Numbered from the stretch's first letter, positions 41,301 to 58,630 are shown. The stretch: DNA of 64,000 nucleotides from Candidatus Eremiobacteria bacterium (GCA_963758295.1 CAVWUU010000001.1:416001-480000), one strand, 5' to 3'. The notes: generated by a model not told the origin, from the sequence alone. Numbers and translations are program-made.

Positions 41301-44300
41301 GTCGATCGGCGGCGGCGGCGGCAACGCCGGCTTCGCGCTTGCCGCATCCATCAGCCAAAATTATTCGACGGCGTTCTCGCTCGGCGGCAGCGGACGGCGA
41401 CGGCTCGAACGGCGGCGTCGTCAACGTTGACAACGAAGGGCAAATCGAAACCTACGGCACGAGTTCGCAAGGCGTCATCGCGCAGTCGATCGGCGGCGGC
41501 GGCGGTAACGGCGGCATTCGCGGCGCAAGCGCCGGCTTCGGCGGGCAGGGCGGCATCGGTCTCGCGTTCGGTGGAAACGCCGGCAGCGGCGGCAACGGTC
41601 TCGCCGTCAACGTCCTCTCCGGAACGAGCGCGACCGGCACGGTCATCATCACCAACGGCGTAAATGCGAACGGCATTCTCGCGCAATCCATCGGCGGCGG
41701 CGGCGGCAACGGCGGCGTCGCAGCTGCCGGTGTCGGTGCAAACGGCCCGGCATTCGGATTCTCGATGGGCGGCAACGGCGGAAACGGCGGCGGGGGCGAC
41801 GCGGTCAACGTTCAAGTCAACTCTGCGATTGCCACGTACGGCGATTTTGCCAACGGCGTCGTTGCACAGTCGATCGGCGGCGGCGGCGGTAACGGCGCAA
41901 TCGACGCGACGGGCGCCGGTTCTTCGAAATTGAGTTCGGCGGTCGGCGTCGGCGGAAGCGGCGGCACCGGCGGCAGTGCTTCGACCGTGAACCTGATCAA
42001 TCAAGGACAAATCACGACGCAAGGCACGAATGCTGCAGGCATCATCGCGCAATCGATCGGCGGCGGCGGCGGCAACGGCGGCGTGAGCATCGCGGGCTCG
42101 ATCTCGCAATCGAACGCGTTCGGCGTGGCGGTCGGCGGCAGCGGCGGAAGCGGCGGCGGATCGAACGACGTGACGGTTCAAAACGGCGGCAGCATCGTGA
42201 CGAACGGCCAGTTCGCCGACGGTATCATTGCGCAGTCCATCGGCGGGGGCGGCGGTAACGGCGCCGTTAGCGTCGGTGGAACGTTGAGCAACTCTTCGGG
42301 CATCGGCGTCGGCGTGGGCGGCAACGGCGGCAACGGCGGCGACGCCGGCACCGTATCCGTTAGCAATACGTATGCGGGACAAGCGGGCGTCATCATTACG
42401 AACGGCGCCGGATCGGTCGGCATCCTTGCACAATCGATCGGCGGCGGCGGGGGCAGCGGCGGCGTCGGAATCAGCGGCAGCATCAACGGCTCTTCGGACG
42501 ATCTCGCGCTCGCGCTTGGTGCAAGTAACGGAACTGTCGGCCATGGCGGCAACGTCACGGTGACGAACGGCGGCACGATTCTTGCCAACGGCGTGGATGC
42601 GGTTGCGGTTGAAGCGCAATCCATCGGCGGCGGCGGTGGCGTCGTCACGGTGAACCTCGCCGGCGGCTTCTCACAAAACAGCGGTAACGTCAAAATGACG
42701 CTCGGCAGCGATGAAACGACGGCGACGGATATGAGCGGCGGTGTCGTAGCGCTTGCGAACACGGGCAACGTGCAGACCACCGGCAACGGCGCGCACGGCG
42801 TGTTGGAGCAATCGATTGGCGGCGGCGGCGGACAAGCCGCGCTTTCGGGAACGCTGACCAACGCGCTTTCCGATAATGCGACGCTTTCGATTGCAGACGG
42901 CGGATACGGCGGTTCAGCGACGGCGGCACAAAATCTTACCGCTAAGAACAGCGGCATGGTTCTCACGAGCGGCACCGGCGCGAACGCAGTGTTCGCGCAG
43001 TCGATCGGCGGCGGCGGCGGTGACGCGGGTTACGCGCTCGTCGCGGATTTGGGCGCAACGGCGAAGGCTGCAAACTTCTCGCTCGCGATGGGCGGAACGG
43101 GCGGCAGCGCCGGCACTGCGGGAACGATCGCTTTAACGACGTCCGGCGTGCTGCAAACGCTCGGTGAAAATTCCGCCGGATTGCTCGCGCAGTCGATCGG
43201 CGGCGGCGGCGGCACCGGCGGCTTTACGGCAAACGGGACGTTCACCACCAGCAGCGCGGCGTCGCAATTCAACGTTGCCGTCGGCGGAGCGGGCGGTTCG
43301 CAAAACAACGCAGCGGCAATCGGCGTAACGAACAACGGAACGGTGCTTACGTTCGGTAACGGATCTTCCGGAATCGAGGCGCAAGCCATCGGCGGCGGCG
43401 GCGGTGACGCCGGCATGACGGTCTCGGGCGCCTTCTCAGGCACGAGCGCAAAATCGATTTCCGAATCGATCGGCGGAGCCGGAAGCGGCAACGGCGCGGC
43501 GATTACGCTTGCGAATGTCGGCGCGATTCAGACCGGTACGCAAGCTTCGGGCTCCGGAACGAATTCAAACGGACTGCTCGCACAATCCATCGGCGGCGGC
43601 GGCGGTAACGGTTCCATTGCGCTCTCGCAACTCGCACTTGGAACGGCCGGCGAAGCTACGACGACGAACGTAAATCTTACCGTCGGCGGCGCGACCGGAT
43701 CGAGCGGCTTCGGCGATGCGATCGGCGTGAACGATAACGGAACGATCTCAACGTTCGGTGCGGCATCGAACGGTTTGGCGGCGCAGTCGATCGGCGCGGG
43801 CGGCGGTAACGCGACGCTTACGTTCTGCGGTTGCAACGTTACGGGCTCAAACGCAGCCGGCGCCACGATCGCCCTTAATGCGGTGCTCGGCGACCCTGCG
43901 TCGACGAATAGCACGGGCGGAAACATTTCGATCGATCATACGAACGGCGAAATCTACACGAGCGGCAGCGTTTCCAACGGCGTGCTCGTGCAATCCATCG
44001 GCGGCGGCGGCGGCACGATCACGTCGGCGCTCAATAGCGCGGTTGGAACGTACTCGCTGAATGCGACGATCGGCGGCAACGGCGGCGTAAACGACTCCGG
44101 CGGAACGCTCGATCTGCAAAATGCCGGATCGATAGCTACGACGGGCGCTCTTTCGGACGGGATCCTCGCGCAGTCGGTTGGCGGCGGCGGCGGTTCGCTC
44201 GCAAGCGCCTATGGCAGCGCATCGCACGCGAACGTTACGCTCGGTGGAAACGCTGCGAGCGGCGACGCCGGCGCAATCACCATTGCCAACAGCGGTGACG

Positions 44301-46849
44301 TCTATACGCAAGGAACGTCGTCGAGCGCCCTCTTCGCGCAATCCATCGGCGGCGGCGGCGGATCGTTCGTAACCAATGCGGCGAATGCGAACGACGCGTT
44401 CGTGCTCGGCGGTGCGAACGGCACTACCGGCAACGGCGGCGCAATCGGCATCAACAACGCGGGTTCGATCCAAACGACCGGCACGGACGCTTACGGCATC
44501 TTCGCGCAGTCCGTCGGCGGCGGCGGCGGCGCGGCGCTCGCAAGCGGAACGGTGACGCTGCAGAACGGCGGGACCGGCGACGGCGGCGCAGTCGATATTA
44601 CGAACGGTGGAAACATCGTTACCTCGGGCAACGGTGCCGACGGCATCTTCGCGCAATCCATCGGCGGCGGCGGCGGTATCGCCGGAACGTTCGCCGGAAG
44701 CGCCGGCGGAAACGGCTCCGCGGGCAACATCAACATCGCTCAAACCGGCGTGATCTATACGCAGGGATCGGCGGCAAACGGCATCGTCGCGCAAAGCGCT
44801 GCCGGCGCGGGAACCGGCGGCAACGTAAACGTTGCAGTGAACGGTTCGATTTACGTGACGGCGTCGAACGCAAACGGCGTTCTCGCGGGAAGCAGCGGCA
44901 GCGGCAGCGGCGGCGACGTCAACGTCACGCTTTCCGCAAACGGCGTGATCGTGGGCGGCGGCGGAACGAGCGGCGCCGGAACGACAAGCGTTTCCGGGCG
45001 AGCCAAATATCACGACGGCATCGTTGGACGGGGCGGGAAAGAAGACGCGGCACAAGCGTCCACCGTTTCGGGAGCAGCCGTGCAGTTTGAAGGCAACGGG
45101 ACGAACTCGTTGACGAATAACGGCACGATTACAACGCTGGCCGGCATAAAGGGCTTCGCCGTTGCCTCGACCGGCGGCACGACGTCGATCGTGAACAACG
45201 GCGTTATGGTGGGCTCGATCTCGCTCGCGAATTCGGCTAACAATTCGTTCACGAATTCCGCTAACGGGGTGTTCATCGCCGGTTCAACCATCAATTTGGG
45301 CGGCGGCACGTTCATGAACGACGGCGCTCTATCGCCCGGCGGCATCGGATCGATCGGCACGATGAACGTTACCGGAAACTACAACCAATCCATGACCGGT
45401 ACGACGGCGATGGATCTGAACTATTTGAACGGCGCCTACGATCGGATCAATGCGACCGGCAACGTGACTGTCTCGGGTCAACTCGACCTCTCGCTGCTCA
45501 ATGTCGCCAACGTGACCTCCGGCGTGCACAACTACGACCTGTTCACGGCCGGTGGAACGCTGAGCGATCAATCGCTGCAGCTGGTTGCGCCGCAGTCGGC
45601 GGTGTCGACCTATTCGCTGGTTCCGAATGCGAATGGCAAGCTGCAGTTGCAGAACGTGGTGAACTTCTCGCCGGCAAACATCAGCGGCGGCACGAGCTCG
45701 TTCGGAAGCTACGTGAGCCTGCTTCAGGCGGCCGGATCGTCACCGTCGCTTTCCGGCATGGTCGCTCAGATCTTTAATGCGCCGTCAGCGACCCAGCTCA
45801 CGCGCCTGTATCAACAGCTAACGCCCGCCAGTTACGGTCCGATGGAAGCCGCTACGCTGCTCAGCACGTTGAATTTCTCGCAAGAAATGCTCACGTGTAA
45901 ATCGCCCGAGACGGACTTCGCATCGCTCTCGCGCGGTCGCTGCGTCTGGGGTGGTTTGGGCAGCACGCAGTCAACGCAAATGGGATCCACGGCTGCCGTC
46001 GGTTACAACGAATACAACGCCGGTGTCTCGTACGGCTTCCAGAACGTCGTGAGCCGCGATAAACAAACGCTCTTCGGCGGCGCGTTCTCGTTCGGAGAAG
46101 ACAACCTTTACGCGAACAGTTCGTCGATGTGGGGCTCCCGCTTCACCGGCGGGCTCTTGTTGAAGCGTGAAAACTCGCACACCGGCATGACGTACTCGTT
46201 GGACGTCACCGGCGGATCGGGCAATTATCAAACCCGCCGCACGATCGAGTTCCCGAGCACGGCGATCCCGACGTCCGCGGGCGCGACCGGCTTTGGATCG
46301 TATCAAACGCCGTCGGCCACGGCTACCGGAGCGAGCTACGTCTCGTTCTTCAACACCGGGCTTCGCGCCGACAAGTACGTTGCGCTCGCCGACGGATGGG
46401 CGCTTACGCCGTACGTTTCGCTGACGGACACGCGCTTGTCGCTCACGCCGACGACCGAAACCGGTGCAGGCGCGCTGAACATCAAGACGGCTTACGAGGG
46501 CGATTCGTATCTGACGCTACAGAGCGGCTTCGAGCTCGGCGGAATCTATCAGGCGAAGAGCTGGCAGATCCAGCCGCACCTCGATATCTTCGCGACGCAG
46601 TTCGTCGGCAACAATCAAACGGGATTACCGTCGACCCTGGAAGGCCAGCCGGTGTGGATGAAGCCCTTCACGTTCAACAATGAAATAGACCGCACGCTCT
46701 TCAACCTGCAGCCGACGATCGATTTCGGTGGAAAATCCGGATTCAGCATGCGCCTCGGCGGCACTTACCAGTTCAGCCCGCACGTGCACGGCGGCACGCT
46801 GAACATCAATATCTCGCAGAAACTGGGGCCTTCACCGAAGGCCCCGTAA
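29374..46849 (+). CDS. Giant glycine-rich repeat autotransporter/adhesin (~5,800 aa if joined), interrupted by at least 8 frameshifts
   Basis: ATGA overlap, signal peptide ending ALA, about 80 AQS[IVL]GGGGGNGG units continuing across successive ORFs (29332, 36413, 38794, 38994, 39088, 40223, 40497, 41014, 41243); LSPG linker and autotransporter-like beta-barrel at ~45900-46849. Confidence 0.85.
29920..44810 (+). repeat. Coding tandem repeat, unit ~155-215 bp, core GCGCA(A/G)TCG(A/G)TCGGCGGCGGCGGCGG
   Basis: Manual count about 80 copies; higher-order period ~1.89 kb. Confidence 0.9.
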
Positions 46850-46858
46850 ACCAGCGAA

Positions 46859-47374
46859 CTACTTCAGCTTATCGCTGACTTCCGAAAAGCCCGTAAGGGG
46901 CAGCGTAGCGTTCACGGTGTGCTCGCGAAGGGCGCCGTCGAGAATCACGTAAGAGACGCGAAGATCGCCCTTGCCGGCACGCATCGCGCTCAGCAGATCG
47001 GCCGTCATTGTGCCCGTTGCGAAGCAGCCCTGCTGCGAGCACGCGAGATAGGTGAACGTTTGCGACGACGCGGTGCCCGCGGCGACCGAGACAGGCGTGC
47101 GGACGGAGACGCCGAGCGGCACGTTCATCGAAAGGCCGACCTTGCCGTCGCCTTGGGCGGCAACGGTGAAGCCGATAACCAACCCGCCGTTTGTGAGGAC
47201 CTGATCGGTCCCGTGGCAGGCGAGGCTGCCTTTAACGGGATCGCACTCCAACTTCCATCCGCTGGTGCTTCCCTGCGTCATCGTGTTCGCAGGAGCGGCC
47301 GTGGGTGCCGGGGTCGCAGCCTGAACGACACCCGAAGACAATGCAAAAAGAGCAACTGCAGAAAGCAATTTCAT
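46859..47374 (-). CDS. Invasion-associated locus B (IalB)-like exported protein
   Basis: Signal peptide; W.L.C, C...Q, VPLGV, C...GC.A, L.AMRAG and LxGFS pattern. Confidence 0.75.
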   Translation of the reverse strand: MKLLSAVALFALSSGVVQAATPAPTAAPANTMTQGSTSGWKLECDPVKGSLACHGTDQVLTNGGLVIGFTVAAQGDGKVGLSMNVPLGVSVRTPVSVAAGTASSQTFTYLACSQQGCFATGTMTADLLSAMRAGKGDLRVSYVILDGALREHTVNATLPLTGFSEVSDKLK

Positions 47375-47831
47375 ACCGTTGTTTTCGGCAATGCGGCTTC
47401 GAAACTTCTGCAAAACGGCTTGTTTTTGAGTAAAGATGGCCGACGAGGGGGAAGCGCTGCGTACCAGCGTTCCAAGTCGCTATGCCACTGGCTTAACGCA
47501 TCGGGCTGAGATAAATGCATAATGTCCCGACGGATAGAAGCCGTAGGTGATGTCTTCTGAAGGGCCAGCGGCAAATTTAGAGGTTGTAGCGTGTACACCG
47601 TCGCGAGCCAAGGCGTAACCGAATCGTAGTATCAAGGGTGCCGAGAACTTGTGCAAACGCGGATTCGTCGTCATCTTTGACGCATGCCAGCCTCGGTATC
47701 GCTCTTTTAAAAAGACTGGCGCGACCGGGCAAAAGCTCTGGCCGACATCGAACGCGGGAATCTTCGCGTGTGGACGCGCGTAGAAGACGTCTTACCCTCG
47801 TTGCAACGCCTCGAAAAATAGCCCCCGTCGC

Positions 47832-47990
47832 ATGCACTATGGAGCCCCGCTGATAAAGCCGGGCTCCTATTTGCATTTCGATGAATTTGCTGATCGTGCC
47901 AATGAAATGCCTGCGTCTTTAAATTTCGTCGAGGAATACGACGTTCGGTACGAAGCCATTGCTTCGACCCCTCATCTAACGCGTCGTCTT
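47832..47990 (+). pseudogene. Possible remnant of a TylF/MycF-like methyltransferase C-terminus
   Basis: PLIKPGSYLHFDEF...E..A..F resembles that family's end; no N-terminus seen. Confidence 0.3.
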
Positions 47991-48096
47991 CCAGGTAACG
48001 GGTATCCGAAACTCCCATCTACTACTCGGCGCAAGAGCAGGCTCCATCGCGACAGCCGACTAGTAACACTGCCAGGTTTTGAAGCTGCAGCTGAGA

Positions 48097-48789
48097 TTAA
48101 CACCCACCTGAGATCTCGATATAAAAAAGGTGACCGTGCCAGAACCCAAAGTTTTGGTCCTGCTCGCAAGGATACTTGAGCGGATGAACGTACGACAAAA
48201 CTTCGATATCCTTATTCCAAGACGCATGTTGGATGAACGTCTTTCCGTAAATCGTTTCCACTTGGGTGCGTGTTTGTCCGAGACGGATTCCATGCACCGT
48301 ACGCAGCGCCGAAAGGTCCTTATCCACTATAGGAATCGGCGGCGCTGCAATGTTGGATGCTAAAACGGTTGAGTGCCACGCGCAGCATCCTTCCGCATAA
48401 AAAACGGTGGAGTGCGCCGAATCGTAGATGGCATCGCCTCTTGGGGCGGCTTGTCCGTAGACGAATGGCGTTCCGTCCTCGGGCGAGCCTTGATTTAATT
48501 TCCACTCCATGCCGCGCGGTATTCGGTTTTCATAAACGAAGCCGTCCATGAATGGCACCTGTGCAGCTTTATGTTGATCGGAGTCTGCAAAGCCCTCTTT
48601 CAAAACCGGGAGCCAAGCCGCAATTTTCCAGTTATTGCAAACATCGTGGAAGTATTGCTTGCAATAGTCGGGCGGACGAAAGTCGGTTTCCGCGCCTTTC
48701 GGATAGTCTATGAACGTACGTTGCGCGCTAATTGCGGGAAGGTACAGCGCAACAGAAAGGGCGGTGAGAATCAGCGCGGCTCTTTTCAT
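48097..48789 (-). CDS. Exported hypothetical protein
   Basis: Signal peptide MKRAALILTALSV; several Cys; GIRLG.T..QVE.IYG. Confidence 0.65.
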   Translation of the reverse strand: MKRAALILTALSVALYLPAISAQRTFIDYPKGAETDFRPPDYCKQYFHDVCNNWKIAAWLPVLKEGFADSDQHKAAQVPFMDGFVYENRIPRGMEWKLNQGSPEDGTPFVYGQAAPRGDAIYDSAHSTVFYAEGCCAWHSTVLASNIAAPPIPIVDKDLSALRTVHGIRLGQTRTQVETIYGKTFIQHASWNKDIEVLSYVHPLKYPCEQDQNFGFWHGHLFYIEISGGC

Positions 48790-48979
48790 GATTCATCGTT
48801 CATTAAGGCTACCGCCCCGTTCCTTTCCAAGCTCGAGTCAAGCTAATGCGAAGCCGGCGCAACGCGGTTGATTCGACAATAAACTGCAAACGTTGCGAAA
48901 TTTTTTGTTCTCGTCTTGAAAGCGTTGTCAGACTTGCAGCCGGTGAAGCACTGAGCGGATGACGCCGTAAAGCGGCGTT

Positions 48980-49237
48980 CTAGAGCCCGATTCGGGTTAG
49001 GTCGGCAATGAATTCTTGCGTGCTGGGGCGATCCAGCCAATTCGCGAGTATTGCTTCAGCTTCGCGAGCCGAGCCGAGCACGCCGAGGTGATGCTCGACC
49101 GAAGCGCGTTGCGGAGCCGGATTCTGCAGCTCCGCTTCAAGGTCGTCAATTGATTGATGCGCTTCGTCGGTGGCCGGGATAGCGCCACGCAGCGCTTCCC
49201 CGGGAAAAGAAGATCGGACTTCGTCGTACTTATCCAT
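48980..49237 (-). CDS. Small helical hypothetical protein
   Basis: 85-aa ORF with plausible composition ending DLTRIGL. Confidence 0.55.
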   Translation of the reverse strand: MDKYDEVRSSFPGEALRGAIPATDEAHQSIDDLEAELQNPAPQRASVEHHLGVLGSAREAEAILANWLDRPSTQEFIADLTRIGL

Positions 49238-49409
49238 GCGGCAACGCTACAAGGCGCGTTATCGCGCGCCCTGCTGCTCCGCAAGGGGACCCCACTTCTT
49301 AAGGACGCGCCTTCTCGCTGCAAACATCGTAGGCTCGACGCCAAGCGAATGCTAGAGATGAACATCCCGTTCGTGCGGGTACTGACAGACCGCGCTGGGG
49401 CTGCCGCGG

Positions 49410-50321
49410 TCATGACGAAACAGACGTGATCCGCGTGCCGCGGTATATTCTCGGCCGCACCCCTTGCGGACCGCGACACGTCAATTGCGCCGGGGATCCG
49501 GCCGTGCTTGAAACCGTAACGTCGAACGTGCCACGCGCAGTCGCGACTCTTACCTGCAAGCGCTCTTCGTCGACCTTCGTCACCGACGTCGCGGTGAGTG
49601 CGTCGCGTGCCGTGATCCCGAGCTGTTGATGTGCGTAGACGATTGCCGCTTGCGCCGCCGGCGTCAGCCCGATGCGCCCCCGCAAAATGTCCGGCAGAAC
49701 TTGGCCTGTCTCGGCGCGTTCCACGAACTGCGCTGCGATTTCCGCGCTCACGCGCCCGTACAGCTCTCCCGTCGGCAAAACCAAGACGTTCGCGGCGAAA
49801 CGGTCGCCGCCCAAATGCGTGGTTTCCCACACGCGACGGGGGCGTAGGTGTTGCAGTGCTTGCGCAACGGGCCGCCCGCGCAACGCGCAGCACGCATCGT
49901 GACGCCCGTGCGCGCAAACCAAGTATAACGGTTGCGTATCGATCGCAATGGGTGCGCGATGCGGCCCTGCGCCTTCCAGTTCGTCGGCGAGCTGCGCTAA
50001 ATCATCGAAGCGCCACCACGCAATCGCTTGCGCACCCGCCCGCGTGTCGGCAATCCCCACGTCGTAGCCTCCAGGGGGCGGCCCCACGTGATGTTTGCCG
50101 TGGCGGCGAATCGCTTGGAGACGCATGCCGGCGCGCGCAGCTGAGACGTCGATGCGATGCGCAACGTCAGGATCGGCACGGCTCTCGAGCAAGCCGCGTG
50201 GCCCCCATGCACCCGGTTGGTGCACCAGCAGTACGCGCGCTTGCGGCGGCGCGGTGCCAAGCATCGAATCGCCGCGTTCATCTGCTGCCGCCGCGCACCG
50301 AAATGCTGGAACACGCGTCAT
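49410..50321 (-). CDS. Sucrase/ferredoxin-like (thioredoxin-like 2Fe-2S) protein
   Basis: GTAP....LLV.QPG.WG, LVCAHGRHDACCA.RG, WETTHLGGDRFAAN, YGR; ATGA overlap with the JmjC gene. Confidence 0.9.
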   Translation of the reverse strand: MTRVPAFRCAAAADERGDSMLGTAPPQARVLLVHQPGAWGPRGLLESRADPDVAHRIDVSAARAGMRLQAIRRHGKHHVGPPPGGYDVGIADTRAGAQAIAWWRFDDLAQLADELEGAGPHRAPIAIDTQPLYLVCAHGRHDACCALRGRPVAQALQHLRPRRVWETTHLGGDRFAANVLVLPTGELYGRVSAEIAAQFVERAETGQVLPDILRGRIGLTPAAQAAIVYAHQQLGITARDALTATSVTKVDEERLQVRVATARGTFDVTVSSTAGSPAQLTCRGPQGVRPRIYRGTRITSVSS

Positions 50322-51526
50322 ACCGGAACGACGATGCCCTCGCGCAGGAGCTGTGCGATCAGCGCCAAGCCCTCCAGCACATCGACGCCCGGCAGAGCCT
50401 CGGCCGAGACAACGGCGCCCGAAACGGCGAGCTGTGCGGCTTGCGCTTGCGCTTCGGTAACGCGAACTTCTTTGTCGGGCAATTCGATCACAAGCTCATC
50501 ATCGCCGGCACGGAATGTTGGACGAAGCCCGGGTCGCACACGTACTTTTGCGTCCGGTGCAAGGGACTCGGCCGCAGCGAATTGTTCGAGCGGCCGAAGT
50601 GGTGCAGGGCGCGTCGCCGCCGCCAGATTGCGTCGAAGCGCGCGAGCGATCGTTCCGCGATCGAAGCGATCGATCGCCGCGTGCAGCGCAGCGATCGTCG
50701 CTTTGAGATCGCCATCGATAGCGCGTTCATCGGTCAAATCGATGCCGGCGGGTAACGAGCGGCGCAGTTCGACATCGTCCGAGAGGACGCTGAGAACTTC
50801 ATCCGCGAGCATCCGGCGCGTCAACGCATGTATCCCGACGGTTAGGTGGCCCGAAATTTCGTTTAACGACGTCGCAGCATGAATGTATCCGCGCGGCAAA
50901 TAGAGCGCGTCGCCACATTCGAGAACGCAATCGATAAGCGGCGTTTCAGCGGCACGCGCGGCAACGGCGGGCTTGCGTGCCTGCCACGGTTGGTCGCGAA
51001 GCGGCGCCTGCAAGACGGGGTCATAGATGCGCCATCGTTTGCGGCCGGCGAATTGGAGCACGAAGACGTCGTGAACGTCATAGTGAGGGGCAAAGCCCGA
51101 GTTCTGCGGCGGCGTTAAATAGGCGTTTACTTGCACGGGGTGTCCGAGCTGCGCTGCAAGCGATTCCGCAAAGGATTGAATCGGCGCCCAAGTTCGATGC
51201 AAGCCCTGGAGCACGAGGGTTGCGCCTGAAGCAAATTCGGTGAGGATCTTGTCGTCGGCGACCTGATCGGCAATTTCCGCACCAGCGCCACCGCCGCGCG
51301 TGTACCGCGACGGCGGCAGAAGATCGCCGTCTCGAGTCATGCGGACGAACGGTGTGCGCAAACCGCGCCGCGACACCAACTCGTCGACTGCGTCCAGGGA
51401 AAGCAATTCGGAAAACCCGCCATTGGGAAGTTGCGCGGCGTTCAGAAGCAGCGGCGCAACGCCCCAATGTGATGTGGAAAATTCACCGAGGGTGAGCCCG
51501 GTGAGGCGGAAGAGCGGATCGCTCAG
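50318..51526 (-). CDS. JmjC/Cupin_4 Fe(II)/2-oxoglutarate oxygenase (RoxA/NO66-like) with C-terminal winged-helix-like domain
   Basis: NAYLTP, HYDVHDVFVLQ..G.KRW, LYLPRGYIHAA, HLTVG; frame open from 51406 up to a CTG at 51526. Confidence 0.9.
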   Translation of the reverse strand: MSDPLFRLTGLTLGEFSTSHWGVAPLLLNAAQLPNGGFSELLSLDAVDELVSRRGLRTPFVRMTRDGDLLPPSRYTRGGGAGAEIADQVADDKILTEFASGATLVLQGLHRTWAPIQSFAESLAAQLGHPVQVNAYLTPPQNSGFAPHYDVHDVFVLQFAGRKRWRIYDPVLQAPLRDQPWQARKPAVAARAAETPLIDCVLECGDALYLPRGYIHAATSLNEISGHLTVGIHALTRRMLADEVLSVLSDDVELRRSLPAGIDLTDERAIDGDLKATIAALHAAIDRFDRGTIARALRRNLAAATRPAPLRPLEQFAAAESLAPDAKVRVRPGLRPTFRAGDDELVIELPDKEVRVTEAQAQAAQLAVSGAVVSAEALPGVDVLEGLALIAQLLREGIVVPV

Positions 51527-51753
51527 CTACCGCCACCGGCGCCTGCGTCGGCACCTCCGTCTGCGCCGCCGTCGGCATCCTCATCCGCGCCGCCGTCGGC
51601 TCCGCCGTCTTGCATGCCCGGATTACCCGAAGCGCCGCCATCGGCCGGCCCTTCAGCGCCGCCGTCCGCGCCGCCGTCATGCATGCCCGGCGTACCGGAA
51701 GCTCCGCCGTCGGCCGTGCCTTCGCGACCCGTTCTGTCGTCATCTTCAAACAT
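51523..51753 (-). CDS. 76-aa acidic Asp/Gly repeat peptide (8 x DGGA), candidate precursor/substrate peptide
   Basis: GGAG RBS 7 nt before ATG; 23-aa internal duplication; TGA stop overlaps the probable JmjC start. Confidence 0.8.
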   Translation of the reverse strand: MFEDDDRTGREGTADGGASGTPGMHDGGADGGAEGPADGGASGNPGMQDGGADGGADEDADGGADGGADAGAGGGS

Positions 51754-52143
51754 CGTTCGGCTCCATCAAAGCGTGGGTAACCGCAAAAGCGCGGTCACAC
51801 GGCGTTTGCCCAGGCCCGCAAACGGTAAAACAGCCGCGGCCCGTTCGTTCGCTCGGGCACGATTACCACGCACCTCATTGACGCCTCTTCATGTAGCAAT
51901 GAAATCATTGCGCTCTCCTTATGGACTTACCGCGCGCTGACCCCGTCGTCATCGTGTTCGGGGTGTTTTTATGTTCAAGGTACTTCTTGGACCATGGCGA
52001 CAGACGGAGGAAAATCGGCGGGACGATTTCATTTGCCAAAATAGCCTGCGCTACTTACTTCGCTACCGAAAGCAACTCACGCATGCGCGCGCCCGTGGAT
52101 GCTGTGGTCGCCGTCAAATACGCGAAGGGCGACTGTAAGATTG

Positions 52144-52215
52144 AGGCGACGGGCAGATTCGAACTACCGCATAGGGCCTTTGCAGGGCCCCGCCTTACCG
52201 CTTGGCTACGTCGCC
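52144..52215 (-). tRNA. tRNA-Cys (GCA), CCA not encoded
   Basis: Acceptor GGCGACG/CGTCGCC, D-arm GCCAAGCGGTAAGGC, anticodon arm GGGCC-CTGCAAA-GGCCC, T-loop TTCGAAT, discriminator U. Confidence 0.95.
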
Positions 52216-52494
52216 GCCGTAGACGTTATACGAGCCGCGTTGTATTGGATCATGCTTTTGCAATTGTTGCATGTGAGCTCTCTAGGGCGTTCGCTAGCGC
52301 CCACCCCTGGGGTACGACGATACCGTGGAACCAACGGCTCATACACGTGCAGCGCAGCTCAATATACCAAGTCGCCGCGCACTAGGATATCGCTCGCTCG
52401 CGATTTGCCATCCACAAACCGCAAACGCTGCTTAGATAGTGTAATGTTAACATTACCGTATTGGGACTCGGCTGAATGTGTTCGAGGTTAGGCA

Positions 52495-54080
52495 ATGACC
52501 AATCCGCGCCTTTTTGAGAGGCGGCACTTGTGGCGATACGTTCTCATGCTCGCGTTTTTCTTTTTCACCCACGCTCGTGCAGGGCATCATGCCGCGAGTC
52601 GCTCATGCCGCCGAAGACGCTGCAACCATTCCGCGCTTCGAGCCGGCGTCGTGTCCGAAACTGCAAGGCGTAGAATGGCTCGTCCGCGCAGACTGCGGCT
52701 ATCTCATCGTGCCCGAGGATCGTAGCCGCCCGAACGGTCGTACCATCCGGCTCCTAGTCGCAAAACATCGTGCACAATCATCGAAAAAGCGGCCCGATCC
52801 GATCCTATACCTGGAAGGCGGCCCCGGGGACATTGCCCCGCTTGAGATCAACTCGATCATCGCCGCCGGACTTCATTCGCGACCGGGACATTTGGGTGGT
52901 GAGTCAGCGCGGCACCTGGCTTTCGCAGCCCGCGCTCACATGTGCGGAGACGAACAATTTCGCAAGAGCGCTCCTTGGCCTCCGTTTCTATTCTGCGGCA
53001 ACGAAGCGCGCACATTTGGCTGCGACGGAAGCCTGCCACGGCAAGCTCATTGCCACCGGAGCCAATCTGAGTGCATACAATTCGACTGAGAGCGTTGCGG
53101 ATCTCGCGGATCTTCGCAAAGTCCTGCGCATTGCTGAGTGGAACGTTTATGCGAACTCGTACGGCACGTATGTGGCTCAGACGCTTATGCGCGATCACCC
53201 CGATGGTATCCGGAGCGTTGTCCTCGATTCGGTCGTACCGACAACGTATACCATCCCTGCAAACTGGTGGAACGCCCGCTACGCCTTCGACAACATCTTT
53301 CAGGCGTGCGCAGCGCAACCGGCTTGCAATGCGGCGCACCCCGATCTGAAGCAAACCTTTACGCGACTCGTTAAGAAGCTTGAGGCCGAGCCGCTGACGA
53401 CAACAGTCAGCTGACCCTATCACCGGCAAAGACGTCAGCGTGGTGATCGACGGCGGTGCGCTGATCGACTGGCTGCGTAATCAGACATATAGCGTGCCAA
53501 TGCTTCGCGCCGCGCCGGATCGGATCGCCGGCCTCGCCGACGGTCGCCGCCAATCCATCGAGGTGATCGCCGAGGATCGGGCCGGCCGGGCGCCACCATA
53601 TCGACCGGGTGTCCGGTTCTCGGTGACGGCCTCGCTTTCGGCGTCACCTGCCGAGAAGATTATCCCTTCGCGACCACGGAAGAACTTGCGGCGGCTGGCC
53701 GAGAAGCGTTTCCGGACTTTCCCGTTTCAGTGCAGCGCGAGGCTGTCGGCGGCTGGGCGTATGCTAACGAAGACTGCCGCGAAGTCTGGAAACCGGCCGC
53801 CGCTCCGAAGACCATGCACGAGCCTGTTGCGAGCAGCATTCCAACGCTCCTCATTTCCGGCACCTTCGATACGTTGACGTCTCTCGCCGGGGCGCGGGCC
53901 GCAGCGACTCGCCTGTCCCACGCGACAATCATCAGCATCCCGGGTGTAGGGCATACTGACTTCCGCATCGTCTCCTTGCGCCCAAGCAGTCATCGTCTCG
54001 TTCTATGCCGCTCCCAATCGCGTCGACACATCGTGCGTCCGTGGGTTGAAACCGCAACGTTTCACCTCAACCGCATCACC
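52495..54080 (+). pseudogene. Secreted alpha/beta hydrolase (TAP-like), multiply frameshifted with an internal stop
   Basis: CGYLIVPEDR, LEGGPG, QRGT..SQP.L.C, NSYGT, VVLDS and PTLLISGTFD.LT spread over three frames; TGA at 53412. Confidence 0.8.
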
Positions 54081-54250
54081 ACAGGTACGACCGTCTGCGA
54101 CGAGCCCTACGGATGCATCTTAGCTGTTCGCAATCGCCGCTCGAAATGCTGAAGATTGACCTTAGCCGTTTCGGCACCTCAGGTCTTTTAACAATGGAAC
54201 GCCTCGCGGAAATTCGAGACGTTCTATTTGCTGGTGTACCGCGAGGACGA

Positions 54251-54613
54251 TTAGAATTTCTTCCTCTCACGTTCAGGAGACCAATCCTCTACCAATTGTC
54301 GAACTTCGATGGCGCCAAAATGCGCGCTCGGAATTAGCGCAGCGTATTCGAGCGCCTGATCATGACTGGCGCAGTTGAACACATAAAATCCAGCCAGCAC
54401 CTCTTGCTTCGCAAACGGTCCTTCTGAAAGAACTCGCTTGCCATCGCGGATTCGCAGTGTCCTTGCCGTATTTGATTCGTAGAACCGGGCGCGATTGTGA
54501 ATTTGCGTGGACAGCGTCTCGTTCAGCTGCTGATATGCATTAGCAGCCGTTTGCAACTCCTCTGGACTTGCCGCTACATCCGTCGGGATATAAATCAAAC
54601 AAATATATTTCAA
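54251..54613 (-). CDS. YciI-family protein
   Basis: KY.CLIY, EGPFA..E.LAGFY, A..P....IEVR; probable TTG start at 54613. Confidence 0.85.
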   Translation of the reverse strand: MKYICLIYIPTDVAASPEELQTAANAYQQLNETLSTQIHNRARFYESNTARTLRIRDGKRVLSEGPFAKQEVLAGFYVFNCASHDQALEYAALIPSAHFGAIEVRQLVEDWSPERERKKF

Positions 54614-54654
54614 GGTAGTACCTTCTAGCTCACAAAAGAATCGAGTAGTCTCGG

Positions 54655-55449
54655 CTACCAATCGACGACCAAACCGCCGGTAAGATTGACCGTTGATGCA
54701 GTCATCGATGTCGCGCGGTCGCTCGCTGCAAAGGCTGCCGCATCGGCTACTTCTTGCACGGTGGTCGAACGTTTCGTGTGCGTGAGGCTCTCGATGAACC
54801 CCTGAAACTGTTGCTGTGGAATACCAATCGCTTTGGCATGCAAGCCGAAGACGGTTTCGATTGTCTTCGTTTCCGGCAGCCCCGTCGAGCGAATGGTCAC
54901 CGCGCGGATCCCATATTGGGCAAGCTCGCCTGAAAAATTACGATTCATCGCTTCCATCGAGGCCCATGACGGCGCCATGCCGCCAACGAGGCGAGCGCCG
55001 AGACGTGAGACCTCCGGGACGTGCGCGAGAATTACACCGCTCTTCTGTTGCATCATGCGCTGCGCCGCTGCCCGAGCCGTAATGAAGTATGACTTAGAGT
55101 ACGCGACGATCGGCTTCATGAAATCTTCGACGGCAATCTCTAGTAAGGGTACACCCTGAACGCCCTGCTGCGGAATGCTGATCGAGCAGAACGAGATGTC
55201 GATGCGTCCGGCCTTCGTCAACACATCGTCGAGGTACGCGTTAGCTGCATTTTCGTCGAGCACGTCGACCATTGATGCTTCCGCTGCTCCGCCTGTGCGG
55301 ACGATCTCGTCGGCAAGAGCTTGGACGGCTGTGTGCGTACGTCCGGCAAGAAAGAGGCGCGCACCTTCGCGCGCAAAGGTTTTTGCGACTACGCTACCGA
55401 CGCCGCCCGCCGCGCCATAGATCACCGCAATTTTGTTTTGGAGTAACAT
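54655..55449 (-). CDS. SDR-family oxidoreductase
   Basis: KIAVIYGAAGGVG, FAREGA, GRID, ELAQYGIR, AFAASD.A..MT...NLTGG. Confidence 0.9.
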   Translation of the reverse strand: MLLQNKIAVIYGAAGGVGSVVAKTFAREGARLFLAGRTHTAVQALADEIVRTGGAAEASMVDVLDENAANAYLDDVLTKAGRIDISFCSISIPQQGVQGVPLLEIAVEDFMKPIVAYSKSYFITARAAAQRMMQQKSGVILAHVPEVSRLGARLVGGMAPSWASMEAMNRNFSGELAQYGIRAVTIRSTGLPETKTIETVFGLHAKAIGIPQQQFQGFIESLTHTKRSTTVQEVADAAAFAASDRATSMTASTVNLTGGLVVDW

Positions 55450-55523
55450 GCCTCAACCGACGGCAGCCTAGCCGAGAAAGATTCTGAATCTTTTTCGGCC
55501 GCGCCATCGTCAAAGAGGATAAG

Positions 55524-56420
55524 ATGCTATATACGGACCTCGAGGATCGCATAGAACCTCTGCGGCCGCGGTTGCACAGGTATTGCTCGCGTATGACCGG
55601 CTCGGTGTTCGATGGCGAAGACGTCGTGCAGGAGGCCCTGATGCAGGCATTTCGCGCTTTGCGCTCCGAAACGGAAATCGTCGATCTCGAGCGTTGGATG
55701 TTCAAGATCGCCCACAACGCCGCCATCGATTTCTTGCGGAAACGAGCGCGCGAATCGCCGCTAGCCGAGTACGATCCGGAAACGCTCGCCTTTACTGATA
55801 ATGAAAACGATCACATCGAGACGGTCCCGGTGAGCATGCGAATGCTGATGCGCCTTCCTGCAAACCAGCGCGCCGCCGTGCTGTTGAAAGATGTGCTCGG
55901 ATACCGCTTGCAAGACGTGACGTCAATTCTCGAAATGACGCTTCCAGCAGTAAAGACGGCGCTGCATCGCGGTCGTTCGCAATTGCGGGACCTTGCGCAA
56001 AGAGAGCTAAAACCGACGTGGGCACCGAAGCTGTCGCCGGCTCAGCGAGCTCTGTTCGAACGCTACGTTGACCTTTTCAACGCACATGACTTCGATGCAA
56101 TTCGGGAAACGCTCGCCGAAGAAGTTCGCTTGGATCTCGTCGGGGTCGAAAGGCGTGAAGGCAAGCTTAACGTCGGGCACTACTTTGAAAACTATAGCAA
56201 GCGTTCGTATTGGCGCCTGCGGGTGGGCACGCTCGAAGGTCGTTATGTGGTCATGGTGCATAGCGCTGAGGTCGGGTCACCGCCGCTCTACTTCGTGGAG
56301 CTCCAATGGGAGGGCGACAAAGTCCGCTCGATCCGCGATTTCGCGCATGCGCGCTACGCGCTCGCGAATACAGAAATTGAGGAATCCTTTTCGAAGGCGC
56401 CATCGTCCGTTGATGCATGA
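55524..56420 (+). CDS. ECF sigma factor with C-terminal SnoaL-like extension
   Basis: LHRYCSRMTGS..DGEDVVQE, WMFKIAHN, LP..QRA...LKDVLG, VKTALHRGR; Y...FN..DFD. Confidence 0.9.
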   Translation: MLYTDLEDRIEPLRPRLHRYCSRMTGSVFDGEDVVQEALMQAFRALRSETEIVDLERWMFKIAHNAAIDFLRKRARESPLAEYDPETLAFTDNENDHIETVPVSMRMLMRLPANQRAAVLLKDVLGYRLQDVTSILEMTLPAVKTALHRGRSQLRDLAQRELKPTWAPKLSPAQRALFERYVDLFNAHDFDAIRETLAEEVRLDLVGVERREGKLNVGHYFENYSKRSYWRLRVGTLEGRYVVMVHSAEVGSPPLYFVELQWEGDKVRSIRDFAHARYALANTEIEESFSKAPSSVDA

Positions 56421-56716
56421 AGGTAACAACTGTACGCTATAAAATCGCGCCTGATCGCGTGCAAGAAAACGTCCGTTTCGTCCGTGCGGTTTTCTCGCAA
56501 CTCCACGAGACGTCGCCGAGTGGACTGCGATACGCGTGCATGAGGGCAGGTAACGGCTCATTCATGCATATCGTTTGCACCGATGACGACGCCGCCGACG
56601 AGTCGCTGACGTCACTTCAATCGTTTCACGACTTTCGCGTGGGCTTTGAGGATCGCGCCCTCGAGCCACCGACCTTCACGGAGCTTGAGGTCGTCGGAAA
56701 CTACGGGCTCTTCTGA
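56417..56716 (+). CDS. Small ABM-like hypothetical protein
   Basis: ATGA overlap with the sigma gene; VRYK..P....EN...V.AVF..L. Confidence 0.7.
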   Translation: MKVTTVRYKIAPDRVQENVRFVRAVFSQLHETSPSGLRYACMRAGNGSFMHIVCTDDDAADESLTSLQSFHDFRVGFEDRALEPPTFTELEVVGNYGLF

Positions 56717-56764
56717 GCTGGGCCACACGATCCTCACCGCTGTCACGCCTCGTTCACCGGAATA

Positions 56765-56927
56765 CTCGATCGGTCGCGCGCACTTCTTGATGCAAAACGC
56801 ACTCATCGCCGCGCAAACCGTTGCCGCCGAAGGGGCCACGTACATGGCGCTTGGCAACGCGCGTATGCCGATGATCGACGGGCGCGATATTCGCGAAGCC
56901 GCAGCGCGCCATCGGATTGTACACTAA
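56765..56927 (+). pseudogene. NmrA/atypical SDR fragment
   Basis: FLMQN...GNARMPMIDGRDI.EAAA with no Rossmann N-terminus. Confidence 0.5.
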
Positions 56928-56965
56928 CCTAAATGTTCTGACGCAAAGCGCGGATCGGGAATCAG

Positions 56966-57196
56966 ATGAAAACTATGACTTGTAGTGATCTTGGCGGAAT
57001 TTGTGACGTAAAGTTGTCCGCTCGCACGTGGGACGAAATGGTAACGACCATGACAGAACACGTGATCGGAAATCATCCTGGCGTCGTTCAGCATATGGAA
57101 AAGATGCACAACGAGGATCCCGGGAGATGGTCTAGAGAGACGAAACCCAAGTGGGACGCCATAATGCCATCGGCGATAGACCGCCGGATCCCTTGA
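56966..57196 (+). CDS. DUF1059-like small protein
   Basis: MKTMTCSDLGG.CD..LSA.TW.EM......H. Confidence 0.7.
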   Translation: MKTMTCSDLGGICDVKLSARTWDEMVTTMTEHVIGNHPGVVQHMEKMHNEDPGRWSRETKPKWDAIMPSAIDRRIP

Positions 57197-57277
57197 GAAC
57201 TGCGTGAGCCGGTTCGCCACGGATGGCGGAGCCGCAGATGAAGAATCGTACCGTCTCGTTTTTAAGCATCTGCATGC

Positions 57278-58630
57278 TCACGGCTTTTTCGGCTGCGTGA
57301 TCTGCGCGTTAGCGTAATGACTCCCGATCGCGCCGTCGCGAATGAAGTCGGCCATCATCTCGAAATACTCCGGCGCAAAGCGCGTCGAGAGACGCTCACC
57401 TTTTGCATTCAGCTCGTATAACGTCATTCCATGTTCCGCGCCGGGATAAACCGCGAGCGTGTATGCCCTTCCGCCGGCAATCAAGGACTTTATGCGCTTT
57501 GCCGTTACAGCGCTTGGAGCGTCTAAATCGTCGGCGCCGAGTACCCAAAGCTGCGGCGTCGTAGACTTCCTTAAAACCGGCATGGGTTGGTACTCGAACG
57601 GAGTTGTGTTCACACCGTACTCCTTGGCCGCCTCAACGATCTGCTTCTCGTTCAGAGGTAAGACGATGAAGAGAAAGTCGCCATGTACATCCTTGTACCA
57701 GCGCGCTGACCTATACTTCCGGCGCAAGCTATCGAACTTATTGTAGCCTTGTCTCCCGCCGGTCTCGACGACGTATTCGCCGGCGCGCGCAAGTTCTAGC
57801 GCCTTAGCGGTATCTGCAGCCGAGCGGTGGTGTAAATACATGTCGAGGGCGACGCTTTCCTGATCTTCTTCTAATACCGTAACGGCAAGTCCAAAGCTCA
57901 CAATCGCGAAATCGACATGAGCATGACTCGCCGCGATCGGTACGACCCACCCGCCTTCACTACCGCCTTGATAGCCGATGCGCCCAAGGCGCGAACCGGT
58001 GAGGCGTTTGGCTTCGTTCAGCGCGGCGACGGCATCCTCGGCAAGAACTTCGAAATTTTGCGTGTAGGTGCCGCCGGATGCGCCGGTTCCGCGCTTGTCG
58101 TACACGAACGCGCCAATACCCTTCGCGGGGAACATTCGTTGTAACGCGTAGAAGTCAAGAGCCGAATCGTGCTCTGAACCATGCACCAAGACAACGACCG
58201 GTATTTTTCCGTGACCTTTCGGTAGAATCAGCCGGCCGGCGAGCTTCGTGCCGTTGCTAAAGAAGGTGGTATTGGTCACATCGAATGCGATGCGCGTACC
58301 GTGCTCCTCTCCAAAAACGATCTTACCTTTGTTGCAATTGGAAAACGAAACGGTCTTGCCGTCCGGGCGACCGGTCCAGCCATAGGTACTCGTCCACGTA
58401 CCGTCCTTCTGCGGATGAAGCTGCCCTGTCTCGCCGGTGAACATACGCCACCGTAGCGTGCCCGCATCAGACGGCGCGATATCGACGGTTTTACCGTCGC
58501 TCAGCCCATAGGAGCCGATGTGACAATCTTTCATCGTATCGGTCGCGGCCCCGGCGGTCAGCGGCGGCGCCACGCAGATCAGGGACGAGATAATCGCGGA
58601 CAGCGCCGCAGCAATCAGTTTGCATTTCAC
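57278..58630 (-). CDS. Secreted alpha/beta hydrolase (S9/S15-like)
   Basis: Signal peptide, LVHGS, YDKRGTG.S.G, GGSEGG, GADD and GAEHG; probable GTG start at 58630. Confidence 0.88.
   Translation of the reverse strand: MKCKLIAAALSAIISSLICVAPPLTAGAATDTMKDCHIGSYGLSDGKTVDIAPSDAGTLRWRMFTGETGQLHPQKDGTWTSTYGWTGRPDGKTVSFSNCNKGKIVFGEEHGTRIAFDVTNTTFFSNGTKLAGRLILPKGHGKIPVVVLVHGSEHDSALDFYALQRMFPAKGIGAFVYDKRGTGASGGTYTQNFEVLAEDAVAALNEAKRLTGSRLGRIGYQGGSEGGWVVPIAASHAHVDFAIVSFGLAVTVLEEDQESVALDMYLHHRSAADTAKALELARAGEYVVETGGRQGYNKFDSLRRKYRSARWYKDVHGDFLFIVLPLNEKQIVEAAKEYGVNTTPFEYQPMPVLRKSTTPQLWVLGADDLDAPSAVTAKRIKSLIAGGRAYTLAVYPGAEHGMTLYELNAKGERLSTRFAPEYFEMMADFIRDGAIGSHYANAQITQPKKP

Follow-up and report, generated by a model that had tools for sequence, protein, structure and literature searches.

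Which substrate belongs to a bacterial JmjC oxygenase whose gene begins where that of a small, strongly repetitive protein ends? The question is raised by three genes on the minus strand at positions 49410–51753 of a 64,000-nucleotide (nt) stretch of Candidatus Eremiobacteria (GCA_963758295.1 CAVWUU010000001.1:416001-480000), which we call the window and to whose positions all coordinates refer. In order, they encode a 76-residue mini-protein with eight DGGA motifs (51523–51753), a 402-residue NO66-like JmjC Fe(II)/2-oxoglutarate (2OG) oxygenase of the ROX family (50318–51526) and a basic, 303-residue sucrase/ferredoxin-like (Suc_Fer) protein (49410–50321). According to the answer we favour, which we regard as about evenly poised between right and wrong, the three genes form a dedicated module of the cytoplasm that is induced by stress and hydroxylates a peptide. 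Its substrate would be the mini-protein, with Asp as the probable target, the enzyme would be translationally coupled to the peptide via a non-canonical start, and the Fe-S protein would be an accessory.

The argument begins with the conservation of the unit. Among the best 80 of at least 367 oxygenase relatives in genome contigs (46–71% identity; set 1), all 74 loci with at least 300 nt of upstream DNA carry a DGGA-type open reading frame (ORF) that ends beside the oxygenase start. A Suc_Fer gene follows directly on the same strand in 70 of the 78 loci with enough downstream DNA. It is non-adjacent in one further locus and absent from seven, which span several families (Intrasporangiaceae, Microbacteriaceae, Pseudonocardiaceae and Motilibacteraceae). 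Both neighbours which a first-pass annotation of the window had expected beside homologous oxygenases are thus conserved. Because Suc_Fer is missing from loci of several families, peptide and oxygenase are the core pair, and Suc_Fer is an accessory that is dispensable in some lineages. In six-frame translations of these loci (678,154 bp), an ORF with at least three DGGA-type motifs is found in 77 of the 80 loci, in each case directly before the oxygenase gene and nowhere else. ROX paralogues of about 30% identity in relatives of this genome (L002–L006) are accompanied by neither peptide nor Suc_Fer. Within 4 kb on either side, no other neighbour is common to more than 13 of the 80 loci and a conserved gene for a protease, a transporter or additional tailoring is lacking, which makes the intracellular product suggested by the first-pass annotation reasonable. 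The three-gene arrangement itself is kept across hundreds of genomes.

The pairing extends to distant relatives, in which the repeats change. A locus of the same phylum with a 36%-identical oxygenase (L102) contains an upstream ORF with a head ..YDDSDVRTIW.. and three DDAGRDDGSAPQP units. With its oxygenase as query, 80 further loci were found in Acidimicrobiia, other Actinomycetota, Chloroflexota, Armatimonadota and other groups (set 2). An Asp-containing repeat ORF is located directly upstream in 72 of the 74 loci with enough upstream DNA, and one of the two loci without it is masked. The repeats consist of T/S/A/G-D dipeptides in 25 loci (Suc_Fer adjacent in 22 of 23 testable cases), of DGTD in five (4 of 4), of DGGA in 37 (18 of 37), of DPGGPGED in three, and of DPDxxK together with a twin-arginine-like signal in two. 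Beside the start codon, a head of the form D-x?-[DE]-[IMV] is present in 66 of the 67 loci of the dipeptide, DGTD and DGGA types, compared with 56 of 2792 control frames (2%). Asp is the sole residue common to all repeat units beside related oxygenases and is therefore the most likely target. The combination of a kept head and changing repeats constitutes, in our opinion, the strongest comparative argument for a functional enzyme–peptide pair and for Asp as its probable site.

Two small groups within set 2 were noted separately. In three loci from Acidobacteriota and Gammaproteobacteria (L151, L165 and L178; oxygenase identity 35–37%) the upstream ORF combines a twin-arginine-like ..RRRSFLTA.. 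segment with basic DPDKVK/DPDAKK repeats; it may be a form of the pairing whose peptide is exported, or a neighbour without any relation to the oxygenase. In three loci from Chloroflexia (L137, L147 and L153) the repeat reads (D/E)TSRDPGGPGED, the ORF ends 147–191 nt before the oxygenase, and both Suc_Fer and the head are missing.

Is the repeat ORF in the window translated at all? It starts with ATG, preceded at a distance of 7 nt by a Shine-Dalgarno-like GGAG (51761–51764, minus strand), which is kept at the same position in the aligned Eremiobacterota loci. The encoded protein consists of a head, MFEDDDRTGR, two 23-residue units of the form EG(T/P)ADGGASG(T/N)PGM(H/Q)DGGADGGA and a DGGA-rich tail; sequence, motif number, duplication and ribosome-binding site all agree with the first-pass annotation. 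The two units share 20 of 23 residues and differ at 11 of 69 nucleotides, nine of the 11 differences falling on third codon positions. In the DGGA frame these amount to seven synonymous and three non-synonymous codon changes, compared with no synonymous change in either of the other two frames. A self-offset comparison within 16 related loci yielded 167 mismatches at the first codon position, 196 at the second and 284 at the third. Since the differences between units concentrate at third codon positions and are synonymous only in the DGGA frame, the codon pattern indicates that this frame is a genuine coding gene, with repeats apparently under purifying selection at the amino-acid level. Frame shifts inside the repeat ORF were encountered in five metagenome-assembled loci (L011, L016, L070, L052 and L055) and may reflect either genuine slippage variants or indels which the assembly introduced into the 12-nt repeat.

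The anatomy of the mini-protein was derived from 71 set 1 peptides, after nine of the 80 loci had been dropped (six truncated or frame-broken, three without an ORF reaching three motifs). Their length varies between 49 and 231 residues with a median of 89, and the number of motifs among related loci between about 5 and 28. Gly (37%), Asp (19%) and Ala (19%) dominate the composition, Cys does not occur, and hydrophobic residues are almost absent. The mini-protein lacks a signal sequence and is small, disordered and hyper-acidic. DGSA forms a common C-terminus (24 of the 71), and an N-terminal head, e.g. M-A-L-D-D-D-D-M-T-T, is present in 46 of the 71. Gene finders usually miss the ORF: an exact look-up of ten peptide sequences in a collection of 15 billion proteins retrieved none, and a search of a database of 5.8 billion sequences yielded only 45 relatives. 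One of these bears the UniRef name ‘BatC protein’, which also occurs among the automatic cluster names of the ESM Atlas; the label which the first-pass annotation had given for the peptide of similar actinobacterial trios thus exists. Pfam contains no family matching the peptide, and NCBIfam and PADLOC contain none matching any of the three proteins.

The oxygenase, by comparison, is readily classified. In Pfam it scores 96.6 bits (cut-off 22, E = 1e-27) for JmjC_2 (PF08007) and also matches Cupin_8. Its best solved relative by sequence is NO66 (1.7e-21), followed by MINA53 and YcfD. H148, D150, K163, W165 and H216 are invariant in 49 homologues, and H148/D150, K163/W165 and H216 align with the HYD, GRKLW (GRKxW) and IH motifs of NO66, whose residues form the Fe(II) triad and the 2OG-binding Lys. 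The AF2 model, with a mean predicted local distance difference test (pLDDT) value of 85.1, aligns with NO66 chains over 452–465 columns of about 457 residues (E = 3.5e-23) at an identity of about 20–22%, and also matches MINA53 and YcfD over its whole length. On the basis of this model the enzyme is predicted to be composed of a JmjC barrel, a helical dimerisation domain and a C-terminal winged helix. Ratios of non-synonymous to synonymous substitution rates (dN/dS) of 0.13–0.17 were calculated against four relatives. The iron triad, the 2OG-binding K-x-W and the winged-helix part recognized in the first-pass annotation are hence borne out by homologue alignment, NO66 alignment and fold comparison. 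Its suggestion that the winged helix serves as a recognition element for peptides that are made by the ribosome and modified after translation (RiPPs) does not follow, because this domain is a trait of the whole NO66/MINA53/YcfD family and thus provides no evidence.

The start of the oxygenase gene is unusual. Its frame is open in the 5′ direction up to an in-frame TAG (51527–51529) directly before a CTG (51524–51526), and no ATG, GTG or TTG is found before the invariant F16. The first canonical start in the ORF listing, a TTG at 51406, lies 40 codons inside the conserved N-terminus. The 49 homologues align from residue 1 of the 402-residue reading, and their Met or Val falls on the CTG of the window. 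Conservation at the protein level covers the first 41 residues, F16, W21 and P25 are invariant, and this part is modelled with pLDDT values of 85–93. The CTG overlaps the TGA of the peptide gene (51523–51525) as CTGA. Of the 4-nt stop/start overlaps described in the first-pass annotation, the ATGA between oxygenase and Suc_Fer (50318–50321) stands as given, and that between peptide and oxygenase exists only if the oxygenase starts at the CTG. The same CTGA junction is found in the nearest relative (L087; 79% identity, with 0.76 synonymous substitutions per site), and since this locus derives from a separate assembly, the missing canonical start is not an assembly error. A canonical start before F16 is lacking in 16 of 93 testable loci (6 of 16 Eremiobacterota, 10 of 77 Actinomycetota), and in 69 of the 93 one is located at −15 to +12 codons relative to the conserved N-terminus. 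Gaps of 20–90 nt between peptide and oxygenase are common in set 1.

Public gene calls of the oxygenase are systematically wrong at the 5′ end. Long forms of 464–513 residues read the repeat in the wrong frame and thereby acquire PTAV/RTA-type N-termini (P0014, P0018, P0051, P0063, P0076, P0101, P0104, P0110 and P0113), and the window's own oxygenase (P0002) is shortened to 340 residues. These miscalled ends hide the real repeat ORF. An in-frame fusion of peptide and oxygenase was considered and rejected, as the long homologues carry the wrong-frame reading of the repeat and not DGGA. In three Eremiobacterota loci (L088, L090 and L091) peptide and oxygenase share a frame, separated by a single TAA and one or two codons without a canonical start, so that readthrough would produce a fusion; three of 16 corresponds to the chance expectation for a shared frame and nothing is claimed from it.

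The third protein matches the Suc_Fer-like family (PF06999) with 71.1 bits against a cut-off of 34.9 (E = 1.6e-19). Its AF2 model (pLDDT 94.5) contains a central domain flanked by two extra domains (residues ca. 1–120 and 235–303). In Foldseek the central domain matched the Aquifex thioredoxin-like [2Fe-2S] ferredoxin (Fd4; 1f37) with E = 5e-4 and a TM-score of 0.69–0.72 on the target, and A. vinelandii FeSI (5abr) was matched as well. The motifs CxHxxxDxCC and HxGG named in the first-pass annotation are present as CAHGRHDACC and HLGG. C136, H138, D142, C144, C145, H169, G171 and G172 are invariant in 45 sequences, and position 173, the candidate fourth cluster ligand, is occupied by Asp, Cys or Glu. 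The conserved C-x8-C pair together with H-x3-(D/C/E) resembles the C-x8-C/H-x3-H ligand pattern of the eukaryotic Suc_Fer-like proteins Apd1 and Aim32. The bacterial protein differs from these and from the ferredoxins by its two additional domains, and from Apd1/Aim32 by the Asp, Cys or Glu in place of the fourth ligand His. Its dN/dS ratio against four relatives is 0.13–0.21. The ATG of the window gene overlaps the oxygenase stop, and a canonical Suc_Fer start does so by 4 nt in 39 of 72 loci, an upper estimate since the start nearest to the stop was chosen. No intrinsic terminator was found 3′ of the Suc_Fer gene on the minus strand.

Based on these data the following scenario can be proposed for the module. 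The mini-protein would be the oxygenase's own substrate and would be hydroxylated at several sites of its repeats, most likely at C-3 of Asp and, in some lineages, perhaps also or instead at the His beside it. Ribosomes finishing the peptide might re-initiate at the overlapping CTG and thereby translate the oxygenase, which would keep the enzyme scarce and produced only alongside its substrate. The ferredoxin-like protein would act as an accessory and may keep the oxygenase iron reduced; owing to its basic character it may also dock the acidic peptide. The product would stay in the cytoplasm and be formed under the control of a sigB/F-type stress sigma factor. Computed net charges are −16 for the peptide, −9 for the oxygenase and +8 for Suc_Fer, and the idea of a charge complementarity between oxygenase and peptide was dropped, Suc_Fer being the basic partner. 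A predicted oxygenase–peptide complex, run without controls, reached an ipSAE of 0.01 in both runs compared with a mark of 0.32 and counts neither way.

Several points weigh against this scenario. The solved close relatives of the oxygenase all act on ribosomal proteins and not on a dedicated peptide, and a net charge of −9 is not obviously suited to so acidic a substrate. The head is missing from 25 of the 71 set 1 peptides, including whole clades that start with MSE.. or directly with EGPADGGA, and its form in the window is degenerate, so that a leader-guided recognition cannot be general. Where the head is conserved, it could itself be the single modification site instead of the repeats. 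His occurs in 52 of the 71 peptides and thus cannot be the universal target. The redox partnership assigned to the Fe-S protein, already suggested in the first-pass annotation, has to face the fact that an external electron donor is not required by 2OG oxygenases, and 19 of the 37 DGGA-type loci of set 2 lack Suc_Fer. Finally, the start at CTG is deduced from conservation, and the modification, binding and translation of the peptide are predictions from gene comparison.

The first of these points leads to an alternative which we consider unlikely, namely that the enzyme is an ordinary ribosomal oxygenase acting on uL16, uL2 or another ribosomal protein, with the mini-protein serving as regulator, decoy inhibitor, chaperone or adaptor, for instance as a mimic of nucleic acid or of a ribosomal loop rich in Gly. 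ROX enzymes are reported to add a hydroxyl group at C-3 of side chains in proteins: the targets are His in Rpl8 and Rpl27a for NO66 and MINA53, and uL16 for YcfD (PMC9994133, PMC5862935). By sequence and fold the window oxygenase falls into this family, sharing JmjC_2 membership, the iron triad, the 2OG Lys and the three-part architecture with human NO66/RIOX1 and MINA53/RIOX2, E. coli YcfD/RoxA and Rhodothermus YcfD. In addition, it is the only ROX-type gene found in this genome with the window oxygenase as query, and some repeat units contain x-H-D-G-G, which resembles the Gly-rich His loops on which NO66-type enzymes act. However, the ribosomal substrates of the known enzymes are encoded elsewhere without a dedicated small partner gene, whereas oxygenases of the window type always have a repeat mini-protein upstream and usually an Fe-S-type protein downstream. 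ROX paralogues do exist without the peptide, as mentioned above. Moreover, a repeat number that varies several-fold and a unit sequence that is wholly different between phyla would be less expected of a specific mimic than of a substrate or polymer.

The distribution of the gene also speaks against a housekeeping modifier, which would be expected to be inherited vertically. Of 400 other genomes sampled from the phylum, 15 contain the oxygenase (56–79% identity, all of one family), each time together with peptide and Suc_Fer, and it was not found in five other genomes of the same genus (completeness 61–92%). A quick maximum-likelihood tree calculated from 100 rows unites the 17 rows from Eremiobacterota in one clade inside Actinomycetota, next to Allobranchiibius and Marmoricola (99 in the Shimodaira–Hasegawa-like approximate likelihood ratio test), although its outgroup branches are long and the actinobacterial sequences had been sampled for their similarity to the query. 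The operon thus appears to be self-contained and horizontally acquired, with a patchy distribution in Eremiobacterota. In the same-genus genome G003 the sequences matching the flanks (44000–47405 and 57192–58000) are 11.2 kb apart with nothing homologous between them, which leaves the 9.8 kb at 47405–57192 without a DNA-level counterpart. A tRNA-Cys(GCA) gene (52143–52215, minus strand) represents the sole match of an Rfam scan of 48800–52600, and the GC content is 0.62–0.66 in the cassette compared with 0.52–0.57 beside it. The region resembles an island or a variable segment next to a tRNA gene; an integrase was not seen in it.

A second alternative, which we judge quite unlikely, regards the mini-protein as the end product, either as an acidic hydrophilic stress protectant or as a cytoplasmic Fe/Mn/Ca buffer, and the two enzymes merely as co-regulated stress genes. 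It is compatible with the Gly-, Asp- and Ala-rich, Cys-free and almost non-hydrophobic composition and with the frequency of the operon in lineages from soil and desert, among them Geodermatophilaceae and Eremiobacterota. Like the favoured scenario, it also draws on a conserved candidate promoter, GTTTT-N16-TGGGCAA (51806–51831, minus strand), which follows the group 3 sigma, sigB/sigF-type pattern GTTT...GGGxA and is located about 53 nt 5′ of the peptide ATG and 312 nt downstream of the tRNA gene. This block is the only match in the window and is kept in 14 of 15 aligned Eremiobacterota loci. In 14 of 74 set 1 loci (13 Actinomycetota and L007, an Eremiobacterota contig) the looser motif GTTT-N14-18-GGGNA is found upstream of the peptide at a distance of at most 150 nt, compared with 0.0015 per 150 nt elsewhere. 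The genome encodes a sigma factor of the SigB/F/G subfamily (286 bits, cut-off 234). A genome-wide regulon for the exact motif received no support, with two matches against two control matches. A search of sequencing runs returned four soil-metagenome DNA runs with small shares (0.07–0.14) and no RNA run. Co-regulation alone, however, leaves unexplained the strict adjacency of peptide and oxygenase across phyla (74 of 74 loci in set 1, 72 of 74 in set 2), the stop/start overlaps with the oxygenase and the existence of oxygenases without a canonical start.

A third alternative is a classical RiPP cluster in which a leader is removed and the hydroxylated core is exported as a siderophore-like metallophore. 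The leader-like head, the variable repeat core and the precedent of JmjC tailoring enzymes in RiPP clusters lend it some appeal, and beta-hydroxy-Asp is a known iron ligand in siderophores. The small precursor-like gene beside the enzyme is present in nearly all testable loci of both sets, but no leader protease or exporter is conserved within 4 kb of it in set 1, the peptide has no signal sequence and many peptides have no head, for which reasons we consider this reading improbable. CzlI and BipG are JmjC Fe(II)/2OG enzymes which hydroxylate Phe of curacozole and Orn of biphenomycin, respectively, each encoded beside the small ribosomal peptide concerned (PMC11575548, PMC12707348). They belong to multi-enzyme clusters with cyclases, proteases and transporters and act once on a short core, and the nearest structure to CzlI is YxbC and not NO66, in contrast to the ROX-type oxygenase of the window. 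One of these sources lists Asn and Asp among JmjC hydroxylation targets (PMC11575548). Unlike the CzlI and BipG clusters, the window module offers a long repeat of Asp-containing units as candidate substrate. Hydroxylation of Asp and Asn at C-3 in proteins is known from FIH and AspH-type enzymes, which are 2OG oxygenases, one of them of the JmjC type. They belong to other subfamilies, and their substrates are folded ankyrin or EGF domains and not a disordered repeat protein.

Most improbable, in our estimation, is that the repeat ORF is mainly a translated leader which delivers ribosomes to a start-less oxygenase and whose product is functionless: the 16 oxygenase genes without a canonical start, the junctions of the window and L087 and the strong GGAG/ATG signals of the peptide gene would suit it, but the apparent amino-acid-level selection on the repeats, the canonical start in the majority of loci, the common gaps of 20–90 nt and the conservation of head motif and Asp repeats across phyla do not.

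Further genes in and beside the variable region are recorded here as observations in their own right. An alpha/beta-hydrolase (Abhydrolase_1 with a TAP-like C-terminal domain) extends over 52514–54152 on the plus strand across at least three overlapping reading frames (pieces at 52514–53089, 52770–53414, 53440–53877 and 53730–54152) and represents a decayed gene or assembly indel errors. At 55524–56420 (plus strand) the same region encodes an ECF-type sigma factor (Sigma70_r2, r4_2) fused to a SnoaL-like domain, with an SDR gene (54655–55449) and a YCII-domain gene (54251–54661), both on the minus strand, as neighbours. A Gly-rich protein of 1868 residues with dozens of ‘..AQSIGGGGG..’ repeats and an autotransporter-like C-terminal part is encoded at 41243–46849 (plus strand) and is followed by an IalB-like gene (46859–47413, minus strand); its repeat gives at least 60 short DNA matches in one region of G003.

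A literature search, with subscription journals outside its coverage, yielded no paper describing this module, none joining JmjC, RiPP and hydroxyaspartate, no relevant paper on DGGA repeats (one match concerned DNA repeats), nothing relevant on Suc_Fer-like proteins or PF06999, and, among the papers listed, nothing giving ‘BatC’ a meaning as an acidic actinobacterial protein. The conserved three-gene unit, previously undescribed, occurs in Actinomycetota, Eremiobacterota, Chloroflexota and Armatimonadota, with hundreds of genomes carrying it. It exposes a systematic gap in annotation, in that the repeat ORF is missed, or often mistaken in another frame for an N-terminal extension of the oxygenase. 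That the canonical start has been lost recurrently, with a near-cognate codon placed over the upstream stop, offers a natural test case for bacterial termination-reinitiation. If the proposed peptide-hydroxylation module is correct, its oxygenase would be the first bacterial NO66-type enzyme with a dedicated, co-encoded substrate, and the many hydroxylations on a disordered Asp-repeat protein would constitute a modification of ribosomal peptides of a new class. A function would also be assigned to the bacterial sucrase/ferredoxin-like proteins, which presently lack one. As a tentative and, on balance, unlikely extension, several phyla might make a multiply beta-hydroxylated poly-acidic polymer, an oxygen-dependent cytoplasmic ‘hydroxylated hydrophilin’, which would, under a general-stress sigma factor, buffer metals (Fe/Mn/Ca) or protect the cell from oxidative stress or desiccation. 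In some lineages, that of the window among them, its enzyme would be made only by non-AUG re-initiation, and a low ratio of enzyme to substrate would thereby be hard-wired.

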